The position numbers and the translations under genes are program-made. Below the pieces are notes generated by a model. It had not been told where the DNA came from and did no database searches. It saw only the letters and a program-made list of their open reading frames with translations. A stretch of DNA of 64,000 bases from a phage, in sequence record PX418922.1; one strand, given 5' to 3'. How positions within the stretch are numbered: position 1 is the stretch's first letter; each line of letters opens with the position of its first letter. Below, piece after piece: positions 388 to 60,360 of this stretch.

Positions 388-1178
388 TTTTTAGCACCTA
401 CTTTAACAACCCACTCTCCGAACTCTTCAGATAAGAGTTTGTCATAAAGCTCTGAATCTGTCAAGTCTAAATCTTTAATGCCAATAAAACCAACATTATC
501 ATAAGCATTTGCCAGTTCTTTCAGGAAGCCAAACTTCTCATTACCAACACCAACCATGAACCAATAAATAGGTTTATTCTTATTCTCTTCGATAAGACGA
601 CGAACAGCACTAGGATCACCATTCTCACCATCCGTCTGGAAGAATACAACACCAGGGGTAATGTCAGCACCTGGTTCAGATACAGCTACAACTTTTTCAC
701 GCTCTACAGACACTGTTTCAGTTTTACCAAGCAGACGATTAAAGAAGCCTTTCTTTGGAGCCTCCTCTTGTACCACTTGTTTAGTGGTAATATATTTAGT
801 AACAGTGCCAAAATACTCATCGTAGATATCCGCCATTACAGGGGCGTAATTTGTTCCACCTCCGATACGAACATTACGCATACATTTACCAACATAGTCA
901 TCGTAAACATCTGCTGTTGCTGGAGTAAGCTCTTGGGAACTCGTATTGAAGGCCCACATATCAATTTGTTGATTATCGTCGAACAGCATACCAAAAGGAA
1001 GCAGTTTACCTACAAAATCACTCACTACCCCATTAGAATATAGACCATGCATACTACCAGAAATATCTAGAGCACATGCTACACGAAGAACAATCTTACC
1101 TTCATTCAGGTTCTTATTCTTTTTCAGAGAGAAAGCAAGGTTTTCTTGACGTTTTTTCAGGCTGATTTTCTCGGACAT
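384..1178 (-). CDS. von Willebrand factor A domain protein (TerY-like)
   Basis: MIDAS motif DISGSM (DxSxS) near N-terminus; 264 aa; 4-nt overlap with neighbour. Confidence 0.6.
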   Translation of the reverse strand: MSEKISLKKRQENLAFSLKKNKNLNEGKIVLRVACALDISGSMHGLYSNGVVSDFVGKLLPFGMLFDDNQQIDMWAFNTSSQELTPATADVYDDYVGKCMRNVRIGGGTNYAPVMADIYDEYFGTVTKYITTKQVVQEEAPKKGFFNRLLGKTETVSVEREKVVAVSEPGADITPGVVFFQTDGENGDPSAVRRLIEENKNKPIYWFMVGVGNEKFGFLKELANAYDNVGFIGIKDLDLTDSELYDKLLSEEFGEWVVKVGAKK

Positions 1179-19389: not shown

Positions 19390-19659
19390 TTAATGATTGG
19401 TGATGTTGATGACAATCTTAGTTTCAACCTTAGCCCAACAGTAATCTGCTTCATTAAAACGACTATTCACAATGTATTCTCCTGCACGAGAACCTGTTAA
19501 GCACACTGCACCTGTATCTGTAGCCAAATAGTATTCCCGTTCTTGTTCATCTACTTCTGCAATGTAATAGTAGAAAACAGACATAGGTTCAATTTCAGAT
19601 AAACGGTATAACTTTGGAACAGGGGATTTCTCGATAAACTCAACAGAAGTTTTACTCAT
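19390..19659 (-). CDS. hypothetical protein (89 aa)
   Basis: ORF track. Confidence 0.45.
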   Translation of the reverse strand: MSKTSVEFIEKSPVPKLYRLSEIEPMSVFYYYIAEVDEQEREYYLATDTGAVCLTGSRAGEYIVNSRFNEADYCWAKVETKIVINITNH

Positions 19660-19892
19660 TTGTTTTCTCCTAGATCTAAACTAATTAAGAAGTCACGAAG
19701 GATGATCATTTGTTCTGTAGACAATGATAATACACCTTCTCCATAAATATCACCAGACCATTCAGCAGTTAGATCTAGTGTACCAGTACCAGGAAACCAA
19801 TCAACAGTGATCTGATTACCATTAGAGTCAGGTAGTATTTCACTGACTAACATAACACACTCTCCTATTATTGTTCTTGATCTTACGATCAT
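19656..19892 (-). CDS. hypothetical protein (78 aa)
   Basis: ORF track; coupled. Confidence 0.45.
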   Translation of the reverse strand: MIVRSRTIIGECVMLVSEILPDSNGNQITVDWFPGTGTLDLTAEWSGDIYGEGVLSLSTEQMIILRDFLISLDLGENK

Positions 19893-19967
19893 CTACCGAT
19901 AAGAACAAGTACTTAAATCTCTGTTCTTCGAACATCTAACGATAGAGATTAATCTATTACATAATCT

Positions 19968-20026
19968 ATACTCGCTATCGCTCGACCCTTCGGGGTTAGG
20001 GTAGCATATTTTTTGAAAAAAGTCAA
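19968..20026. repeat. conserved ~60-bp intergenic element, copy A
   Basis: TACTCGCTATCGCTCG + hairpin (CCC-TTCG-GGG) + TAGGGTAGCATATTTTTTGAAAAAAGTCAA; second copy at 52633-52690. Confidence 0.6.
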
Positions 20027-25422: not shown

Positions 25423-26409
25423 ATGGCAGCACCAAAATCATGGGAACAATATAAAGAAGAGTGTCAACCAATAGCAGAGAGTAAGCAAATCCAAATCTTA
25501 GGATGGACGGGAGAATGGAAAGGGGTTAATACAAAACTTGATTTGTTGTGTCATTGTGGTTATAAATGGGATACTACAAGTATTAACAATTTTAAACGTG
25601 GTAGTGGTTGTCCTTTATGTGGATATGAGAATACAAGGAAGGCACAAACAATATCCGACGATCAACATATTGCAGATTTCTTTTCTACAGGGAAGTTTAA
25701 GGAAGGCACTATTTTCACCAATACGGGGGAACGTAAAGGGTGTGATCCAGTATGGATGATTCAGTGTCCTGTTTGTTCTCATGATGAATATGTTAAAGCT
25801 GGACTATGTGATGGTAAGTTTTATATGACGCGTGGCAATCTTAAATATGGATACTTACCCTGCCGTTGCTCTGCATCTTATAGGTATACAGCGGAACAGA
25901 TTACGTATAAAGTAAGAAAGAAAATAGAAAAGAAAGGGTATGTTTGGATAGGATGGATTACCAAACCATCTTCTATAGGTAAGTTTAAATATATATGTAA
26001 GAGTCATGGGGAACAAAAAGGAACTGCAAACAACCTTTTAAACATAGGACAAGGTTGTCCGCAGTGTGCTAACAAAAATCAACAACAAGCCTACATTAAT
26101 TATATTTACGATGAGCAAGATATTATCTGTGCACTGAAGTTTGGTATTGCTAATAATAGTAATCGCCGTATGAAAGAACAAAATAGTCATAATGTGTTCA
26201 CTATGAAACAACACCAAGTGTGGCACTTCCCTACTGTTAAGCAATGCCAAAACGCAGAGAAATATTGCAAGAAGGTGTTAAACACGGAAGCAGTGAGCAA
26301 ATATTCTATGCAAGATGGCTACACAGAAACAGTGGAGCTATCTTGCATGGCATCCGTACAGAATATTTATAAACTTTATGGTGGAACATTACAGGAGGAA
26401 ACATGTTAG
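25423..26409 (+). CDS. zinc-ribbon repeat protein with C-terminal GIY-YIG / T5orf172-like domain, copy 1
   Basis: Repeated CxxC pairs; C-terminal YINYIY-(10)-KFGIA...R; paralog at 42111-43091. Confidence 0.45.
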   Translation: MAAPKSWEQYKEECQPIAESKQIQILGWTGEWKGVNTKLDLLCHCGYKWDTTSINNFKRGSGCPLCGYENTRKAQTISDDQHIADFFSTGKFKEGTIFTNTGERKGCDPVWMIQCPVCSHDEYVKAGLCDGKFYMTRGNLKYGYLPCRCSASYRYTAEQITYKVRKKIEKKGYVWIGWITKPSSIGKFKYICKSHGEQKGTANNLLNIGQGCPQCANKNQQQAYINYIYDEQDIICALKFGIANNSNRRMKEQNSHNVFTMKQHQVWHFPTVKQCQNAEKYCKKVLNTEAVSKYSMQDGYTETVELSCMASVQNIYKLYGGTLQEETC

Positions 26410-27499: not shown

Positions 27500-27740
27500 T
27501 ATTTTAACTTTTTTCATTTTTAGAACAAAGGTGTCACTTTGTAGCACAGAAATAAGGCTCCTACAGCACCGTAGAGAGCCTGTTATTTTGTCCTATACAA
27601 ACCCTTGTCTTTTTCAGTTTGCATCACTAGGATTCGATCTAAGTAGGTTCCTGAAGGTCTACCAATAAGATTAAAGGTTATCTCAAATTACCACTACCTG
27701 TTATCTCAAAAATTCCTCAAATTATTTAAACTTTTTAAGA

Positions 27741-27920
27741 ATTTACAAAAGTGAAAGTTGAAAACCAAAATTTAAAGTTTAGGAAAATTATCTTAAAATG
27801 TCAGATACAAAACAAAACTCAAAAGTCAAGGAAAATTTTAAAAATTTTGCGCGCCCACAGTATTTAAAGTTTTTTTGCTTTTACAAAAATGAAAGTACAA
27901 AAGCAAAATTTAAAGTTTAC
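27741..27920. repeat. two ~40-bp imperfect direct repeats in an AT-rich intergenic region
   Basis: TTTACAAAAGTGAAAGTTGAAAACCAAAATTTAAAGTTTA (27741-27780) and TTTTACAAAAATGAAAGTACAAAAGCAAAATTTAAAGTTTAC (27879-27920). Confidence 0.6.
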
Positions 27921-27967
27921 AAAAATTTATGCAGATGGGAATGAGAAGAGTTCTCATGTGGAAATGC

Positions 27968-28046
27968 AAATGATAATGATTCGCATTTAGGTTTATAAAT
28001 GAGATTGATTCTTATTTAATAAAGTAAATGATAATCATTCTCATTT
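27968..28046. promoter_or_regulatory. three Fur-box-like palindromic sites
   Basis: AAATGATAATGATTCGCATTT, AAATGAGATTGATTCTTATTT, AAATGATAATCATTCTCATTT; core GATAATCATTCTC is 1 mismatch from the Fur-box 3' 13-mer. Confidence 0.4.
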
Positions 28047-28304
28047 AGAGAATGACGCGCAGGGGCGGTGTTTGTCTCGCGCTCCCGTGTCCCCTCGCCA
28101 TGTACTAAGAATAACAGATCCAGCCAGGAAAGCAAGCGATTATTTTATCTTTACATTTCTTTACAAATATATAGCGCCCAGCCTACCGGCGATCAACCTT
28201 CCAACCAGTGCCCCTGGTATGTTAGCCCCGCCTTTACGCCGTGGGGTGGCGCTTCCTCTTCTGTATGTAAAACAGTATAAGCCCTATCCCTGGGCTTGTC
28301 AAGA

Positions 28305-37908: not shown

Positions 37909-37924
37909 ATAACATTTCATACCA

Positions 37925-37950
37925 GGGCGCACAAAGCGCCCTTTCTTTTT
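37925..37950 (+). terminator. intrinsic terminator closing the island
   Basis: GGGCGC-ACAAA-GCGCCC then TTTCTTTTT. Confidence 0.65.
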
Positions 37951-39529
37951 GCCCGAACAATGTTGATAGATTCCGCCTATGGAAAACCGACACAGAACAA
38001 AACTGAATAAATAGCGGTATCAAGCTAATCAACCATTAAATGAATAACCATACCTCCCAGGGTAACAGGCTGTTAGAGAGCCATTTAAAGCGGTTAAAAT
38101 CGATCAACAACCAACAACAAACCATCAAAAACACCCTTTTACCTCCTTTCTAGTGCAATGATAACCATTATCATCTATCCATGTTTATCTATACAATATA
38201 AGTGCATAATTATAATGTTGATAATAGTTCGCAACAACTAACCAACAAACAACATAAAACAATAAGCAAACTAATCATAATCAAAGGAATAATAGCAAGA
38301 TGATTGATAACAACAAACAATCAAACCATGATGAATACTAAGCAAGATAACGATAACACGACAAAACAACCAACTAACGAACAATAACAAACGAAACCAT
38401 TAAAATAATAACTATTGCCATAATAGTGACTAAATGAAATCATTACAAAACGAATCATTCACAGAGTCATCATTAGCACGCTATGCCGGACACATAGCGA
38501 GCTAATAATAAGCCAACTACACCCCAACAATCATAACCATCGGTGATGGTTATTTCTTGTTACTGCGTAGCTTGCAATAATTGCAAGCGTAATGACGCTT
38601 ACACTTATTGCGCTGGCTTATTATTAGCATTATATGTAATTACCAAGATCATAACATTAGCGCAATAACAATAATCATTGTGGTAATTACGTAAGGAAAC
38701 AATTAGCATGGCAATAATTATGGGGCAATGGGAGGATGATTATCATCATTCCGATACATTGCACACTATGCACATAATAGAATAAAAAGCAATAATTTTG
38801 GGGGCGAAATGTTACCGCCACAGGCGGGAATGTTGAGCACTAAGAAAAGAGATAAACCTTAATCATGGGGGCGTAAATATCCGCAGGATTGCCAACGGCG
38901 ATCCGGTAGGATGTTGAGCATCTTCTCTTAAACGTAAATAAAATCAGAAAATTCTTGATTTATTTTAGTTTTTATGTTAATAAACGTTTAAATAATAATC
39001 ATTCTCATATAAATAATAGTCTGCTTGTCATGAGCGGGATTAGTTGACAATGTTCCGTCATATGATGAAGTTGCCAACCTATTGATAAATAAGTGTTTGT
39101 GTGATTTATAATCAAGTGGCCCACCTTGTCGCTACGTTGGCATAAGCCTTGCATAAGTCATTGAATACGAATGATAATTATTCTCATTCGCATGATATTT
39201 GGGAATTGTCGCTGCGTGGACCTGACGGCCCGAAAATTCGCGTTAAGCACTTCTTACGTATGCGCCATGATTTTTGCCATATGATATTGATTCTATTAGA
39301 TATTCTTGCCATGATTGCCATGAAACAGGGTGTCCCGAAATAATCTTTCCCCGTAGATATTTTGGGTTACTTTTTATACAAGAGTGGGGTGTCAAAAATA
39401 ATCGGTATATATGGGATAATTGATAGGAATCCCCTATGATAATTCGATTGTAATTCCCTGAGATTGATCGTATGATGTTGGTGATTGATGATTGCCATGA
39501 AAGATGGCTAACGATGAGAGGAGATTATC
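37951..39529. other. 1.6-kb non-coding, repeat-rich region with strand-skewed A+C content
   Basis: No ORF of 60 aa or more; CAACAA/ACAAAC low-complexity runs; palindromes; Fur-box-like sites at 38991-39010 and 39169-39189. Confidence 0.5.
38570..38588. repeat. 19-bp palindrome
   Basis: GCTTGCAAT-A-ATTGCAAGC, 9-bp arms. Confidence 0.6.
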
Positions 39530-42007: not shown

Positions 42008-42110
42008 TGTTTCGCACAACGGAGACTAAGCATGTCGATTGTTTACCTGGCTGTTTGGTTCCGCTGTGATTTGTTTGTCCTGTCGGGGCATTTTTAGGAG
42101 TCTGGAAGTA

Positions 42111-43091
42111 ATGGCTAAAACTAAAAGTTGGGAAGAACATTTAAAAGATTGTTTAGAGGTTGTAAAACCAGGTGTTAAGATACTAGGATGGTCAGGAGAA
42201 TGGAAAGGAGCACATACCCGTTTGCGGTGCGTGTGTTCTGTTCACGGGGAATGGACTTCCACCACAATACATAAGTTTAAAATGGGGAGAAGTTGTCCAG
42301 GTTGTAGGACAGATGCTTCAGCCCATGCTAGACACAACGGAGATAAGTTTTGGTTGGATTTGTTGTATAATTTTTGTCAAGAACGAGATTTCTTTTTTGA
42401 AGTGCCTCAACCTCCTATCTACGGTAGGTCTGAAATCAAGATCTGCTGCCCGAAACACGGTACATTTAGAAGTACACTAAGTAATATACAAAAACAAAGA
42501 TCATGTCCCATGTGTAAAGTAGATGCAGCCAGAGAGAATAATCTTTTACCTGACCAATATCACGTGGAGAAGTACATGGCGACAGGTTCTTTTCCACAGG
42601 GCAGTTTATTTCGTAGAATAGGTAAAACAAGAAGTTCGAAAGGTTCAGCACAAACATGGGAGTGCTACTGTCCCACATGCAATGAAACACATCTTGCACG
42701 TGATAGCAATCTGGCTCAAGGTAAGCGACCATGTTCTTGTTCAGGGAATAATCAGAAGCAAGCGTACATTAATGTGGTATTTGACAACAACACTCCTATA
42801 GCTTTAAAGTTTGGAATAGCAAGAAACAGTGCACAAAGATTAGCCGCACAAAATAAAAAGAATTTTTTGAAGATGGATTGCTTGGCGGTATATTCTTTCA
42901 GAACAGTCAGAGAATGTAAAGCTGCGGAACGCGCTTGTAAGAGGATGCTGGTCTGTAGTACAGTAGGTAAGAAAGAAATGGTTGACGGGTATACTGAAAC
43001 AACATATATTTCTAATTACGATACAATTGTGGATATCTATAAGAAGTTTGGAGGTGTGAAGTTGCAAATGATAAAGAAGAGTACCGAGTGA
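42111..43091 (+). CDS. zinc-ribbon repeat protein with C-terminal GIY-YIG / T5orf172-like domain, copy 2
   Basis: Start moved to MAKTKSWEEH after GGAG; paralog of 25423; C-terminal YINVVF...KFGIA...R. Confidence 0.45.
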   Translation: MAKTKSWEEHLKDCLEVVKPGVKILGWSGEWKGAHTRLRCVCSVHGEWTSTTIHKFKMGRSCPGCRTDASAHARHNGDKFWLDLLYNFCQERDFFFEVPQPPIYGRSEIKICCPKHGTFRSTLSNIQKQRSCPMCKVDAARENNLLPDQYHVEKYMATGSFPQGSLFRRIGKTRSSKGSAQTWECYCPTCNETHLARDSNLAQGKRPCSCSGNNQKQAYINVVFDNNTPIALKFGIARNSAQRLAAQNKKNFLKMDCLAVYSFRTVRECKAAERACKRMLVCSTVGKKEMVDGYTETTYISNYDTIVDIYKKFGGVKLQMIKKSTE

Positions 43092-51908: not shown

Positions 51909-52328
51909 ATGTTAGGTAAGATCAAAGCTTTTTTCAAACGTATTGTTGAAGGAAGTCCAACAGAAGGTGCATTAGGAAGATCTCTAACAGGAGAACCGCT
52001 TGCCATAATTTCTATCAGTCGGTATGGTGGATATTCAATTAAACAAACACCTTTAGGTATAGAAGGTAGTATGCTTTCTTGGACAATATCTCAAGTTGGT
52101 GATAACAGGCTTGCAGCTATAGCATTGCTTCGTGGGGAGTATGACTATTGTTTATCAGCGCCTTGTAAAAAGCATCTCATAGAGCACATTAGAGATAGAG
52201 TAGAAAGAGAAGGCGGATACTTCTTCGAAACTAAGAGAAACGAACAAGGAACTCTTGACTTCACTAAGGTTTACTGGGACAATCATACTCGTCAAACTGT
52301 TGAACAACTTCTGGAGGAAAGATGTTAA
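51909..52328 (+). CDS. hypothetical protein (139 aa)
   Basis: ORF track. Confidence 0.5.
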   Translation: MLGKIKAFFKRIVEGSPTEGALGRSLTGEPLAIISISRYGGYSIKQTPLGIEGSMLSWTISQVGDNRLAAIALLRGEYDYCLSAPCKKHLIEHIRDRVEREGGYFFETKRNEQGTLDFTKVYWDNHTRQTVEQLLEERC

Positions 52329-52531
52329 AAGCTTTTGCTGTATACTCTACTGTAGGATTCTTTTATTGGATTATAGTTGTTGTTGGATGTTGGTTGGGTT
52401 CTTCTGTTGTGATGGGAGAATGGTTAACATACAATGTATTTGAATGGAATGTAGTTTGTAGATCATTACTTGTTATATGGACTGCTATTGTTTGTTGGAT
52501 AACTGTTAGTCTAACATTAGATCTATATTGA
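52322..52531 (+). CDS. small membrane protein (69 aa)
   Basis: GGAGG RBS; two hydrophobic helices. Confidence 0.45.
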   Translation: MLKAFAVYSTVGFFYWIIVVVGCWLGSSVVMGEWLTYNVFEWNVVCRSLLVIWTAIVCWITVSLTLDLY

Positions 52532-52632
52532 TTAATAGATGGTAGATAGATGATCATAGTTTATCTACCTTCACTTACGTTTCATACCTCACTATCGTGA
52601 GTAACATGAAACATTATTATATAGAAATCTAC

Positions 52633-52690
52633 TACTCGCTATCGCTCGTAAACATATGTTTAGGGTACCATATTTTTTTGAAAAAGTCAA
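52633..52690. repeat. conserved ~60-bp intergenic element, copy B
   Basis: TACTCGCTATCGCTCG + hairpin (AAACA-TA-TGTTT) + TAGGGTACCATATTTTTTTGAAAAAGTCAA; copy A at 19968-20026. Confidence 0.6.
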
Positions 52691-52697
52691 TGCTGAT

Positions 52698-52790
52698 TCA
52701 CCTATCAATTATCTGTTTAAGATAAATCTTACCTATCAATCTAACTCTTAACTAGTATTGCACCTATAGTAAGACTATTCCTATAGTTAT
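52698..52790. repeat. iteron-like short direct repeats
   Basis: CCTATCAAT at 2 sites and CCTATAGT at 2 sites within about 90 bp. Confidence 0.4.
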
Positions 52791-52824
52791 TAACCCTCTT
52801 CTTCTGTAGAATGTAATTAGATCC

Positions 52825-52854
52825 TTGACAAACTCACAAAGCTTGTGTTACATT
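52825..52854 (+). promoter_or_regulatory. sigma70-like promoter
   Basis: TTGACA-N18-TACATT ahead of 52892. Confidence 0.4.
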
Positions 52855-52891
52855 GTGTCTCACAAGTGAATAATACCGAACAGGAGGAAGA

Positions 52892-53107
52892 ATGAGTTCC
52901 AATTTTCTATACAAAGCAAAAGATTCACGAGATGGAGAGAACCATTGGTGGTTGATCACAGAAGATGGTGTTATCATCCTACCGTGGGACGGAGAGACGA
53001 AAGTTCAAATACTAGAGAAAGTAAAAGGTGTTAGTTTTAATGTTAATCATGATATAACAACTTTCAAAGCTTTTGCTATGAATCCTAGTCTTGTTGCTGA
53101 ATGGTAA
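52892..53107 (+). CDS. hypothetical protein (71 aa)
   Basis: ORF track; AGGAGG upstream. Confidence 0.5.
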   Translation: MSSNFLYKAKDSRDGENHWWLITEDGVIILPWDGETKVQILEKVKGVSFNVNHDITTFKAFAMNPSLVAEW

Positions 53108-53120
53108 TCCAGGAGAAGAT

Positions 53121-53339
53121 ATGACTAAAATGTATGCAGCCGTTGATAAGCTGGATGGGTCTGATTCTGTTTTTATTTTGAATAAAATGGGTGTCTTAGT
53201 TTATGCCCGAACTTCTCAAAACATAGAGCACCAAGTGGAAGCAGCACAAATTTTAGAGCAAATAACCCCTCCATACCTATACTCAAATGTTGAGCGTTTT
53301 AACGATGCACTTGGTTTGACGTTAATAGCGGAATGGTAA
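53121..53339 (+). CDS. hypothetical protein
   Basis: Start moved to ATG after AGGAG. Confidence 0.45.
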   Translation: MTKMYAAVDKLDGSDSVFILNKMGVLVYARTSQNIEHQVEAAQILEQITPPYLYSNVERFNDALGLTLIAEW

Positions 53340-53539
53340 TAATGGCGAAAATGTTGAAAATTGATAATGTCGTAACAATCACTACGTCCATACCTTGTCC
53401 TCCTATGCCTTGCCCCTATTGTGGTGGTGCAGGATATGTTATGGCGGATGTAGGTCAAATTTACGAGTGTAACCCGTGCAAAACCACAGGTTATATCCAA
53501 ATAGAATCAGAGGAGAAACACTATGAGCCAAAACGCTAA
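53333..53539 (+). CDS. small Cys-rich protein
   Basis: CPPMPCPYCGG ... CNPC; start ambiguous (53333 or 53342). Confidence 0.4.
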   Translation: MVIMAKMLKIDNVVTITTSIPCPPMPCPYCGGAGYVMADVGQIYECNPCKTTGYIQIESEEKHYEPKR

Positions 53540-59435: not shown

Positions 59436-60360
59436 AAGGCTTTACTACATGTTGATTAGCTTTAAAACGTTCAACATAGTCGTTTTCACCCATGTTTTCA
59501 TATAGTTTAGTAACAACATAAAAGTTTTCCCAAGCATATTCCCTAAACCAACCACTAGTGATGGAGGTGCAGACTTTTGATAAAGCCATTATAAAACTTT
59601 GCTTAGGGGTTGGACCTCCGATCTCTTCACCGAAAGGAATTTGTGAACGTTCCAAAGCCAAAACACACGCTTCTTCATAAACACCTAACAGGCGCACATG
59701 TTTTGGTTGAGCAAAAAACTTTTCTTTGCTGGTCATAACTTCACTTCCATCTTTCATATAAGATTTATATGCTGGAGCATCCATTAACGCGATTGCTTCA
59801 TGGATAGAATCATGATCATAAACATACGGAACCTCGTCACCTTTAAAGAACTCTTTACTTTTTACGTTTAAGTTCGGATGAGAGTAAGTGTATGTTTCTT
59901 TCTCACGCAACTCATAAATACTCTTAAGATTTTCTGGGATCTTTGCGCCCAGTGACCGCATGAAATGAATATCTTTCATAGTTTTAAAGAAGTGAGGACT
60001 ATCCTTTTTAAAACGATGACTCATTTTAAGAAGGTAGAGCACATCTAAAGGAGCAACAACATGTCCAGCGTAAGTTCGACGAACATCATCAGAATCTTCA
60101 CAATAACTAATCAAAGCTTCTGTGCTATCTCCTTGAGAAGCAATATCGTATTCCAAATGTGCACCAGCTATCATTTTGACATGGCCTTTGTTCCCTTTAC
60201 GTTCTACAAGTTCAACAAACTCGTCTTGAGAGAACATTTTTGATAATTCTTCCCACTCTTGTTCTGTACACAGGTAATCTAAATCTACACAAGGGCGATA
60301 CAAGTCTTTTCCCATGTCCATAGCATGAATTTGTAATGCACGGCTACCAATTAACACCAT
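59419..60360 (-). CDS. nucleotidyltransferase-fold protein (tentative)
   Basis: N-terminal LIGSRALQ...DLDYL resembles the GS...DxD signature of the Pol-beta-like NTase fold. Confidence 0.35.
   Translation of the reverse strand: MVLIGSRALQIHAMDMGKDLYRPCVDLDYLCTEQEWEELSKMFSQDEFVELVERKGNKGHVKMIAGAHLEYDIASQGDSTEALISYCEDSDDVRRTYAGHVVAPLDVLYLLKMSHRFKKDSPHFFKTMKDIHFMRSLGAKIPENLKSIYELREKETYTYSHPNLNVKSKEFFKGDEVPYVYDHDSIHEAIALMDAPAYKSYMKDGSEVMTSKEKFFAQPKHVRLLGVYEEACVLALERSQIPFGEEIGGPTPKQSFIMALSKVCTSITSGWFREYAWENFYVVTKLYENMGENDYVERFKANQHVVKPFEGGY

Follow-up and report, generated by a model that had tools for sequence, protein, structure and literature searches.

Within a long plus-strand run of small early-type genes, the phage DNA analysed here (sequence record PX418922.1, 64,000 nucleotides, hereafter the window) holds a stretch of about 350 bp without genes, and the question raised by this locus is whether the stretch serves as a replication origin or as a control region for transcription. 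An earlier note on this DNA had left both options standing, and had likened the clustered short direct repeats beside A+T-rich DNA to iteron-type origins. Based on the analysis below, we read the stretch as a divergent-promoter region controlling transcription and not an iteron-type origin, in which one promoter-like element could still prime replication. The 350 bp would be the spacer between two operons of the early region, acting as a compound transcription control region, and to this full reading we give about even odds.

Over positions 52,000-53,400 the DNA is 99.6% identical to Escherichia phage SKA64, indicating that the window comes from a Phapecoctavirus (phAPEC8-like E. coli phage), and identity of the same region to phAPEC8, ASO2A and about 60 further Phapecoctavirus genomes is 98-99%. 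Phapecoctavirus is placed in the Stephanstirmvirinae, myophages of about 150 kb. GC skew and open reading frames (ORFs) show that genes lie on the minus strand at 1-21.4 kb, on the plus strand at 21.5-56 kb and on the minus strand again beyond, and the plus-strand block is the run of early-type genes in which the stretch is located. The absence of genes from the roughly 350 bp, as first described, was borne out: a 39-aa CDS annotated over copy B of the conserved element treated below (ASO2A_058 / phAPEC8_0059) was rejected as a gene, since its version in the relative phiWec188 is broken and reads ATG CAA TAA (2 codons), and a frame-shifting length difference between copies A and B of the element also speaks against a protein. 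Regarding the six flanking ORFs, matches were obtained only to PHROGs without known function, and no Pfam replication domain was detected in them. One of the flanking ORFs, of 68 aa and zinc-ribbon-like, carries a loose DNA ligase label. A homologue of the next gene, with the motif LYKAKD, also lies behind the B-type copy in phi92-like phages. The features of the locus, together with the two other copies of the element, are listed in Table 1.

Table 1. Coordinates of the features at the 350-bp stretch and of the copies of the conserved element (window positions unless stated otherwise; promoter, terminator and start-site assignments are predictions).
Feature	Position	Strand	Description
Upstream gene	52322-52531	+	69 aa, hydrophobic, PHROG 24123 (function unassigned); last gene of the operon ending at the hairpin
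Putative hairpin terminator of upstream operon	52541-52569	+	Inverted repeat GGTAGATA / TATCTACC; from the ASO2A annotation and folding
Second conserved hairpin	52579-52612	.	Outer 7-bp stem GTTTCAT/ATGAAAC, inner stem CTCAC/GTGAG
Copy B, purine-rich box	52626-52648	-	CGAGCGATAGCGAG-TAGTAGATT; would be the initial transcribed region, about +6 to +30
Copy B, variable segment	52649-52661	.	Palindrome TAAACATATGTTTA between the -10 hexamer and the box
Copy B, core	52662-52690	-	-35 TTGACT 52690-52685; 17-bp spacer ending TGG; -10 TACCCT 52667-52662
ACCTATCAAT, copy 1	52700-52709	+	About -53 to -61 from the putative leftward start
ACCTATCAAT, copy 2	52731-52740	+	31 bp from copy 1; about -84 from the putative leftward start
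CCTATAGT pair	52763-52770 and 52780-52787	+	In a lineage-specific module with the next gene's promoter
Putative rightward sigma-70 promoter	52825-52854	+	TTGACA-18-TACATT with TG; would serve the next gene
Ribosome-binding site of next gene	52882-52887	+	AGGAGG
Next gene	52892-53107	+	71 aa, PHROG 16110 (function unassigned); ATG at 52892
Copy A	19969-20026	-	-35 TTGACT 20026-20021; -10 TACCCT 20003-19998; box 19984-19971
Copy C	about 59.87-59.93 kb in ASO2A	+	In a 480-bp divergent intergenic region between a nucleotide-metabolism gene block and a tRNA cluster

The four short direct repeats on which the comparison with iterons had been built, two sequences occurring twice each, are present as a 10-mer, ACCTATCAAT, and an 8-mer, CCTATAGT, which share only the core CCTAT and follow one another at 31, 32 and 17 bp. 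The neighbouring A+T-rich region was found as well: the 100-bp windows at 52,693-52,792, overlapping the repeats, and at 52,467-52,566 are the 3rd and 4th least stable in the 64 kb. An iteron-type origin, at which a phage initiator would bind to the CCTAT repeats and open the A+T-rich DNA next to them, could draw on four CCTAT-core sites within 90 bp, a cluster unique in the 64 kb, on the instability of the overlapping DNA, and on the conservation of two of the sites with their spacing. However, taking an iteron array to consist of at least three direct repeats of about 17-22 bp with one consensus and regular spacing, we found units of 8-10 bp in two different and irregularly spaced pairs, of which only one is kept in relatives, the CCTATAGT pair not being conserved. 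Moreover, no initiator-like (Rep or O-like) gene occurs among the six flanking ORFs, support from sequence shuffling is weak, TRF detected no tandem array in the region, and the search for perfect DnaA (TTWTNCACA) or IHF (WATCAANNNNTTR) sites gave only matches with 1 mismatch, GATC being likewise unremarkable. Compared with the iteron origins of R6K gamma, pSC101, P1 oriR and ori-lambda, the locus is alike in having short direct repeats beside A+T-rich DNA, but it differs in repeat length, number and regularity and in the missing cognate initiator gene and host-factor sites. Two other gene-free stretches in the window look more iteron-like or origin-like. We therefore consider an iteron-type origin very improbable; of the two options, the control region has held up (the stretch has a predicted terminator and, between two promoter-like sites placed back to back, conserved short sites), whereas the iteron origin has not.

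Whether the repeats mean anything at all was judged by shuffling and by comparison with relatives. Dinucleotide shuffling of the 350 bp (1000 rounds) gave P = 0.10 for a direct repeat of 10 nt or longer, P = 0.13 for a 5-mer occurring four times within 100 bp, and P = 0.015 for the two features together. Chance in A+T-rich intergenic DNA, with only the terminator and the two promoters being of consequence, is favoured by three points: each repeat feature alone is reached in 10-14% of shuffles, an 8-mer repeat within 350 bp is expected anyway, and the phiWec-type relatives are devoid of the CCTATAGT pair. Against this stands the conservation of the other pair: both CCTATCAAT sites and their 31-bp spacing survive in phiWec188, phiWec186 and an IMG/VR contig (identity about 82% where the region aligns) while 6 of the 21 intervening bases are changed, and homology to these three stops directly after the second CCTATCAAT site. 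Furthermore, ATAGG lies exactly 11 nt from the -35 hexamer in four of the five B-type lineages, which belong to different genera, and is absent from A- and C-type copies; and four CCTAT within 100 bp on one strand are found only here in the 64 kb (39 CCTAT in total, 0.06 per 100 bp). Chance as the source of all the short repeats is consequently unlikely in our view, and for the CCTATCAAT sites conservation is, at the level of sequence comparison, a stronger argument than the shuffle statistics. Because their spacing is conserved and the position of ATAGG is fixed in B-type copies only, the CCTATCAAT sites belong to the B module. The CCTAT / CCTATCAAT sites are most likely putative binding sites for a regulator of an orphan promoter or of the back-to-back promoter pair, while the CCTATAGT pair could be either a further pair of sites or a product of chance. 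PHROG and Pfam comparison of the neighbouring genes yielded no candidate for a CCTAT-binding protein. The resemblance of CCTATAGT(A/G)AG to the reverse complement of the T7 promoter core was judged a coincidence, the specificity region being mismatched; moreover, no T7-like polymerase is known from Phapecoctavirus-type phages.

At the left end of the stretch, the inverted repeat that had been pointed out consists of the arms GGTAGATA (52541-52548) and TATCTACC (52562-52569), and as RNA it grows to an 11-bp stem (52541-52551/52559-52569) with a 7-nt loop; exactly this hairpin is labelled as a rho-independent terminator in the ASO2A record. In phiWec188-type relatives, two stem positions are changed to U-G and G-U on the plus strand, which correspond to A-C mismatches on the opposite strand. 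Since wobble pairing is kept on the plus strand only, the hairpin would function within the upstream operon's mRNA. Its tail, CUUCACUUACGUUUC, is U-poor, our terminator/promoter scan made no call there, and 14% of shuffles contained a perfect stem of 8 bp or more (P = 0.14; 1000 dinucleotide shuffles of the 350 bp). The inverted repeat is accordingly read as a predicted hairpin terminator of the upstream operon with a weak U-tract. In the second hairpin, two outer pairs are altered on both sides between the window and phiWec188 (G-C to A-T and T-A to G-C). At the right end, where a promoter for the next gene had been proposed, we found a good match to a sigma-70 promoter.

Copy B of the conserved element, which occupies the middle of the stretch, was likewise found where it had been reported, at 52633-52690, and matches copy A on the same strand. 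By means of a relaxed pattern, followed by an nhmmer profile built from a 12-member core alignment, exactly three copies were counted in a complete 149-kb genome, A and B in the window and C outside it (E = 5e-17, 7e-16 and 2e-13; next-best match E = 3.4). The element is about 60 bp long and conserved across the Stephanstirmvirinae, being found in Phapecoctavirus, Justusliebigvirus (phi92), Citrobacter phage Tr1, Klebsiella phage KP13-26 and several IMG/VR contigs of about 150 kb, and the intergenic DNA around it does not permit alignment between genera. A host origin was rejected, as no match was obtained in 5,426 E. coli genomes. Neither Rfam nor the inspected annotation of related records contains a description of the element, and literature searches on transcription or origins of phAPEC8, phi92 and Stephanstirmvirinae retrieved nothing relevant. 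Read on the minus strand of B, the layout of the 12 aligned members is TTGACT, a 17-18-bp spacer, (R)YATG(C/G) and TACCCT followed by A, and then 12-16 variable nt, CGAGCG, 0-2 nt, AGCGAG and (G/T)TAG. The box formed by the last motifs (consensus CGAGCG(AT)AGCGAG(K)TAG) is conserved across genera. Its pattern CGAGC-N1-3-AGCGAG has only 3 occurrences in the 149-kb genome, and among about 70 genome sites of the form TTGAC[AT]-N16-18-TAnnnT the box is carried only by the three copies of the element.

The element is best read as a putative host sigma-70 extended -10 promoter, which in copy B would fire leftwards. The -35 hexamer of copy B, TTGACT, agrees with the consensus at 5/6 positions with 17-bp spacing, and in the family TTGACT, TTGACA, TTGATT and TTTACT are found at this position, the distance between -35 and -10 being 17-18 bp in all 12 members. 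The -10 hexamer, TACCCT, is invariant (12/12); it agrees with the consensus at 3/6 positions, with T1, A2 and T6 present and preceded by TGn in the form of TGG or TGC, and falls below the threshold of the promoter scan. The hexamers are kept while the spacers drift (C-type spacers TTTGTGTTCGAAGTATGC, TTGATATACTAAGTATGC and AACGCAAAAAAGTATGC are unlike those of A- and B-type copies), and copy B departs from the -10 block at one position only, the n of TGn. Such retention of hexamers and distance with a diverged spacer is the conservation pattern expected of a sigma-70 extended -10 promoter. Some features are harder to accommodate: sigma-70 recognition alone does not explain why CCC and the box further downstream are invariant, the variable segment between -10 and box is often palindromic, the putative start lies within this palindrome, and the plus strand of A and B resembles a long stem followed by a T-run, i.e. 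a terminator. Plus-strand promoters using TAGGGT or CATATT as -10, or TATCAA as -10 for the next gene, were rejected on account of an unfit spacing or -35, and their spacing also shifts with the variable segment. The consensus sequences of sigma-32, sigma-E, sigma-54 and sigma-28 showed no fit by eye. Compared with the extended -10 promoters recognized by sigma-70 in coliphages (T4, T5 and T7 early promoters), the element is alike in TTGACT, the 17-18-bp spacer and TGn before TAnnnT, but differs in its invariant TACCCT, in a box of about 25 nt, putatively transcribed, that is conserved across genera, and in having only three copies, one of which has no gene to express.

The orientation of the copies to genes bears on this assignment. 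Copy A is aimed at a minus-strand gene (19656-19853), with DNA helicase and anaerobic ribonucleotide reductase genes further along, and copy C at a rightward unit with tRNA genes, no other plus-strand promoter candidate being present in the divergent intergenic region around it; this gene-facing orientation supports the promoter reading for A and C. Copy B is aimed backward at the 3' end of the upstream gene in all lineages, with no gene downstream, and it is antisense to the flanking genes in the window, in Tr1 and in KP13-26. Given this shared backward aim in the three phages, B would therefore be a conserved orphan promoter, and since it would fire into non-coding DNA without a downstream gene, its product would most likely be a short non-coding transcript. 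A small orphan promoter that fires backward to give a short antisense RNA is familiar from lambda, where Po, the promoter of oop RNA, lies beside ori-lambda in a region of replication and regulation. Copy B is alike in its small size, its lack of a gene and its aim back at the 3' end of the upstream gene; it is unlike Po in having no sequence similarity to it, no lysogeny circuit and no clear minus-strand terminator, of which there is none at all in KP13-26-type phages. A discrete small RNA from the minus strand was rejected, as the genera share no conserved sequence beyond the box and a terminator is lacking at this place in KP13-26.

The plus strand of the same DNA could instead encode an RNA element that works within the upstream operon's mRNA, as a stronger second terminator or as a boxA-like antitermination signal; to this reading as a whole we assign a small probability. 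In the first form, a long stem GCUAUC...GGUAGC would enclose a small hairpin and be followed by a U-run, and in the second, a boxA-like CGCUCG would be accompanied by a hairpin. What they explain is that the plus strand of A and B runs through a stem into T6-7, that copy A folds with z = -2.4 and a cUUCGg loop, and that B is co-oriented with its flanking genes. The proposed outer stem GCTATC/GGTAGC can pair in 93.5% of its cells, but it is without any covariation, its arms being the invariant promoter and box blocks, so that the pairing test is uninformative; copy B itself breaks one pair. Moreover, -35, -10 and box are kept in C-type copies, which lack the T-run and any good hairpin, copy A would be antisense to real genes, and the conserved AGTCAA at its fixed distance of 17-18 bp is left unaccounted for. 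A compensatory inner hairpin, suggested by the palindromes of A (ACCCTTCGGGGT) and B (TAAACATATGTTTA), was also considered and set aside; its potential is modest over 10 distinct variants (Fisher combined P = 0.03) and absent in C-type copies. Rfam 15 gave no match at gathering score in the 64 kb, with only chance snoRNA/snRNA matches at E <= 10 around A and B, and a tRNA/tmRNA scan gave nothing. Antitermination RNAs such as the lambdoid nut sites (boxA/boxB) and put of HK022 occur in few copies and consist of a short box beside a variable hairpin. The element resembles nut and put in its few copies, in a conserved box next to a variable hairpin and in its position near the heads of long, terminator-rich transcription units; it is unlike them in that its box is off the boxA consensus, the hairpin is not universal and, whichever strand is read, one of the three copies is in the wrong orientation.

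The DNA into which the three copies would fire is unusually unstable. In nearest-neighbour stability profiles of 8 loci from 3-4 lineages, the 100-bp window of least or near-least stability was found in every case (8/8) to begin between +19 and +98 from the putative start, downstream in the promoter direction (rank 1 in four loci, 2nd-4th in the others). In the 149-kb genome as a whole, the DNA downstream of C is the least stable (rank 1), that of B belongs to the top 0.2-0.3% and that of A to the top 0.9%, while none of 108 sigma-70-like control sites reach 0.0025 and 6.5% reach 0.01, the control set being lenient because sites inside genes were included. An A/T-rich inverted repeat with 56-nt arms lies behind copy C, and 3.9 copies of an all-A/T 15-mer lie behind the B copy of KP13-26.

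These data invite an extension of the promoter reading, in which each element would be a transcription-primed (R-loop) origin: the purine-rich initial transcript would hybridise in the downstream A+T-rich unwinding element and prime the leading strand. This extension includes the promoter and adds a function to it, B becoming an orphan origin promoter, and by analogy with known phage origins we hold it possible, though clearly on the doubtful side. It would account for the unstable DNA directly downstream in every locus and its extreme genome-wide ranks against the controls, for the A/T 15-mer array of KP13-26, for the inverted repeat behind C at a site of transcriptional divergence beside nucleotide-metabolism genes, and for the conservation of an orphan promoter across genera. 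On the other hand, intergenic DNA is A+T-rich anyway and the controls include intragenic sites; copy A, behind which a gene begins after about 130 nt, is the weakest case; and the window has gene-free stretches, at 27.7-28.05 kb and 37.9-39.15 kb, that carry no element and are no more stable, for which reason we lowered our estimate of the origin reading.

The known origins in question are those of T4, oriF (uvsY) and oriG (gene 34), where a middle-mode promoter is combined with a downstream unwinding element and the transcript forms a primer R-loop (PMC3016281). The three copies are alike in that a promoter-like sequence directly precedes unusually unstable A+T-rich DNA, that several such sites occur in the genome of a large lytic phage, that one of them (C) lies at a transcriptional divergence and that A and C would also serve genes. 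They differ in having a canonical -35 hexamer, TTGACT, at 17 bp and no MotA box ((a/t)3TGCTTtA), and in sharing an invariant -10 block and a putatively transcribed box among the three sites, whereas the T4 origins share almost no sequence. Since the MotA box is absent, the element is not a member of the oriF/oriG class and the resemblance is functional only. The full form of the proposal, that the element marks the replication origins of Stephanstirmvirinae by way of an invariant TGnTACCCT promoter and an R-loop primer, with B as a gene-less member tuned by a protein bound at CCTATCAAT, is slightly more doubtful still.

Taken from left to right, the stretch would thus be composed of the terminator hairpin of the upstream operon, the second hairpin, copy B, the two CCTATCAAT sites and the CCTATAGT pair, and the rightward promoter with its ribosome-binding site. 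Promoter B would fire into hairpin-rich, readily melted non-coding DNA toward the 3' end of the upstream gene, its transcript could be antisense or interfering, or could form an R-loop, and a regulator bound at the CCTAT sites would act on two back-to-back promoters. For the function of the element, the leading candidates are a promoter class of ordinary kind under unusual constraint, a transcript with antisense or interfering action, and an origin primed by transcription.

The anatomy of the stretch is made of familiar parts. Of most interest in it is the promoter-like element with its three copies, among which B is the one without a gene. Phapecoctaviruses and phi92-like phages are isolated widely and serve as candidates for therapy and biocontrol, and our search for publications on their transcription programme or replication origins found none. 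Should the element be no more than a strong promoter of the ordinary kind, the region is routine, and the value of the analysis lies in an annotation fix, in which the 39-aa gene is dropped and promoter and terminator are added. As a three-member promoter class invariant across genera, it predicts three start sites and three origin candidates, and the start at copy B would give an orphan non-coding transcript.

Judged by its sequence, the stretch at 27,690-28,055 of the window is far more iteron-like than the gene-free stretch with short CCTAT-type repeats at 52540-52890. It lacks genes, is very A+T-rich and contains three sets of repeats (see table), of which the 51-nt units bear four palindromic sites of the type AATGAnA....TTCTCATTT. 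The last of these sites is similar to the Fur box of E. coli, with 3 mismatches, and directly to the right of the stretch GC climbs to 0.437.

Another stretch, at 37,910-39,150, extends over about 1.2 kb with zero ORFs of at least 60 aa. The lowest GC of the window (0.342) and its strongest AT skew were both observed here, and the least stable 100 bp of the whole window lie inside it, at 38,920. Its counterpart in the related phage ASO2A (5151-6660) is likewise without annotation. This stretch, which also bears A/C-rich repeats and an inverted repeat, is a candidate for a long non-coding RNA or an origin.

Coordinates of features in the window and of copy C of the promoter-like element
Feature	Location	Strand	Details
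Direct repeat, 72 nt	within 27,690-28,055		two copies, 82% identical
Repeat unit, 29 nt	within 27,690-28,055		three copies
Repeat unit, 51 nt	starts 27940, 27969, 27998		three copies, steps of exactly 29 bp
A/C-rich repeats, 17 nt	within 37,910-39,150		three copies
Inverted repeat, 24 nt	within 37,910-39,150
Hairpin TTGTTCTT...AAGAACAA	19,866-19,909	-
CDS over copy B, 39 aa	52606-52725	+	annotated in phAPEC8 (0059) and ASO2A (058)
ORF	25423-26409	+	PHROG 681 (endonuclease)
ORF	42039-43091	+	PHROG 681 (endonuclease), HNH endonuclease family
Region of copy C of the element	L024 (locus of copy C) 870-1150		ASO2A MZ726793 about 59,870-60,150; outside window

Regarding copy B, the small CDS annotated over it is almost certainly spurious as a gene; phiWec188 reads ATG CAA TAA there. 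The genes directly to the right of 52540-52890, 52892-53107 (+) and 53121-53339 (+), are distant paralogues whose products share the C-terminal end ...AEW, and a weak match to PHROG 16110 was found for 53121-53339 as well. In phi92-like contigs, a B-type copy is followed by a homologue of 52892-53107 (LYKAKD motif). In the Klebsiella phage KP13-26, a 15-mer made up of A and T alone, ATAATTAATTAGTTA, occurs in 3.9 tandem copies (585-643 of sequence L008), located 75-135 nt downstream of the B-type copy of this phage in the promoter direction.

Copy C, the third copy of the element, is located in a divergent region, with nucleotide-metabolism genes on one side and a tRNA cluster on the other. 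After it come the least stable DNA anywhere in the genome and an A/T-rich inverted repeat whose arms are 56 nt long. Both ORFs matching PHROG 681 are in the early region of the window and may be paralogous homing-type endonucleases.

The hairpin at 19,866-19,909 sits after copy A and ahead of the ribosome-binding site belonging to gene 19656-19853; it is annotated as a terminator in ASO2A, yet has no U-tract. A hairpin, though a different one, occupies the matching place in phi92 and KP13-like phages, so a leader hairpin seems, from these sequences, to be a feature kept in A-type copies.
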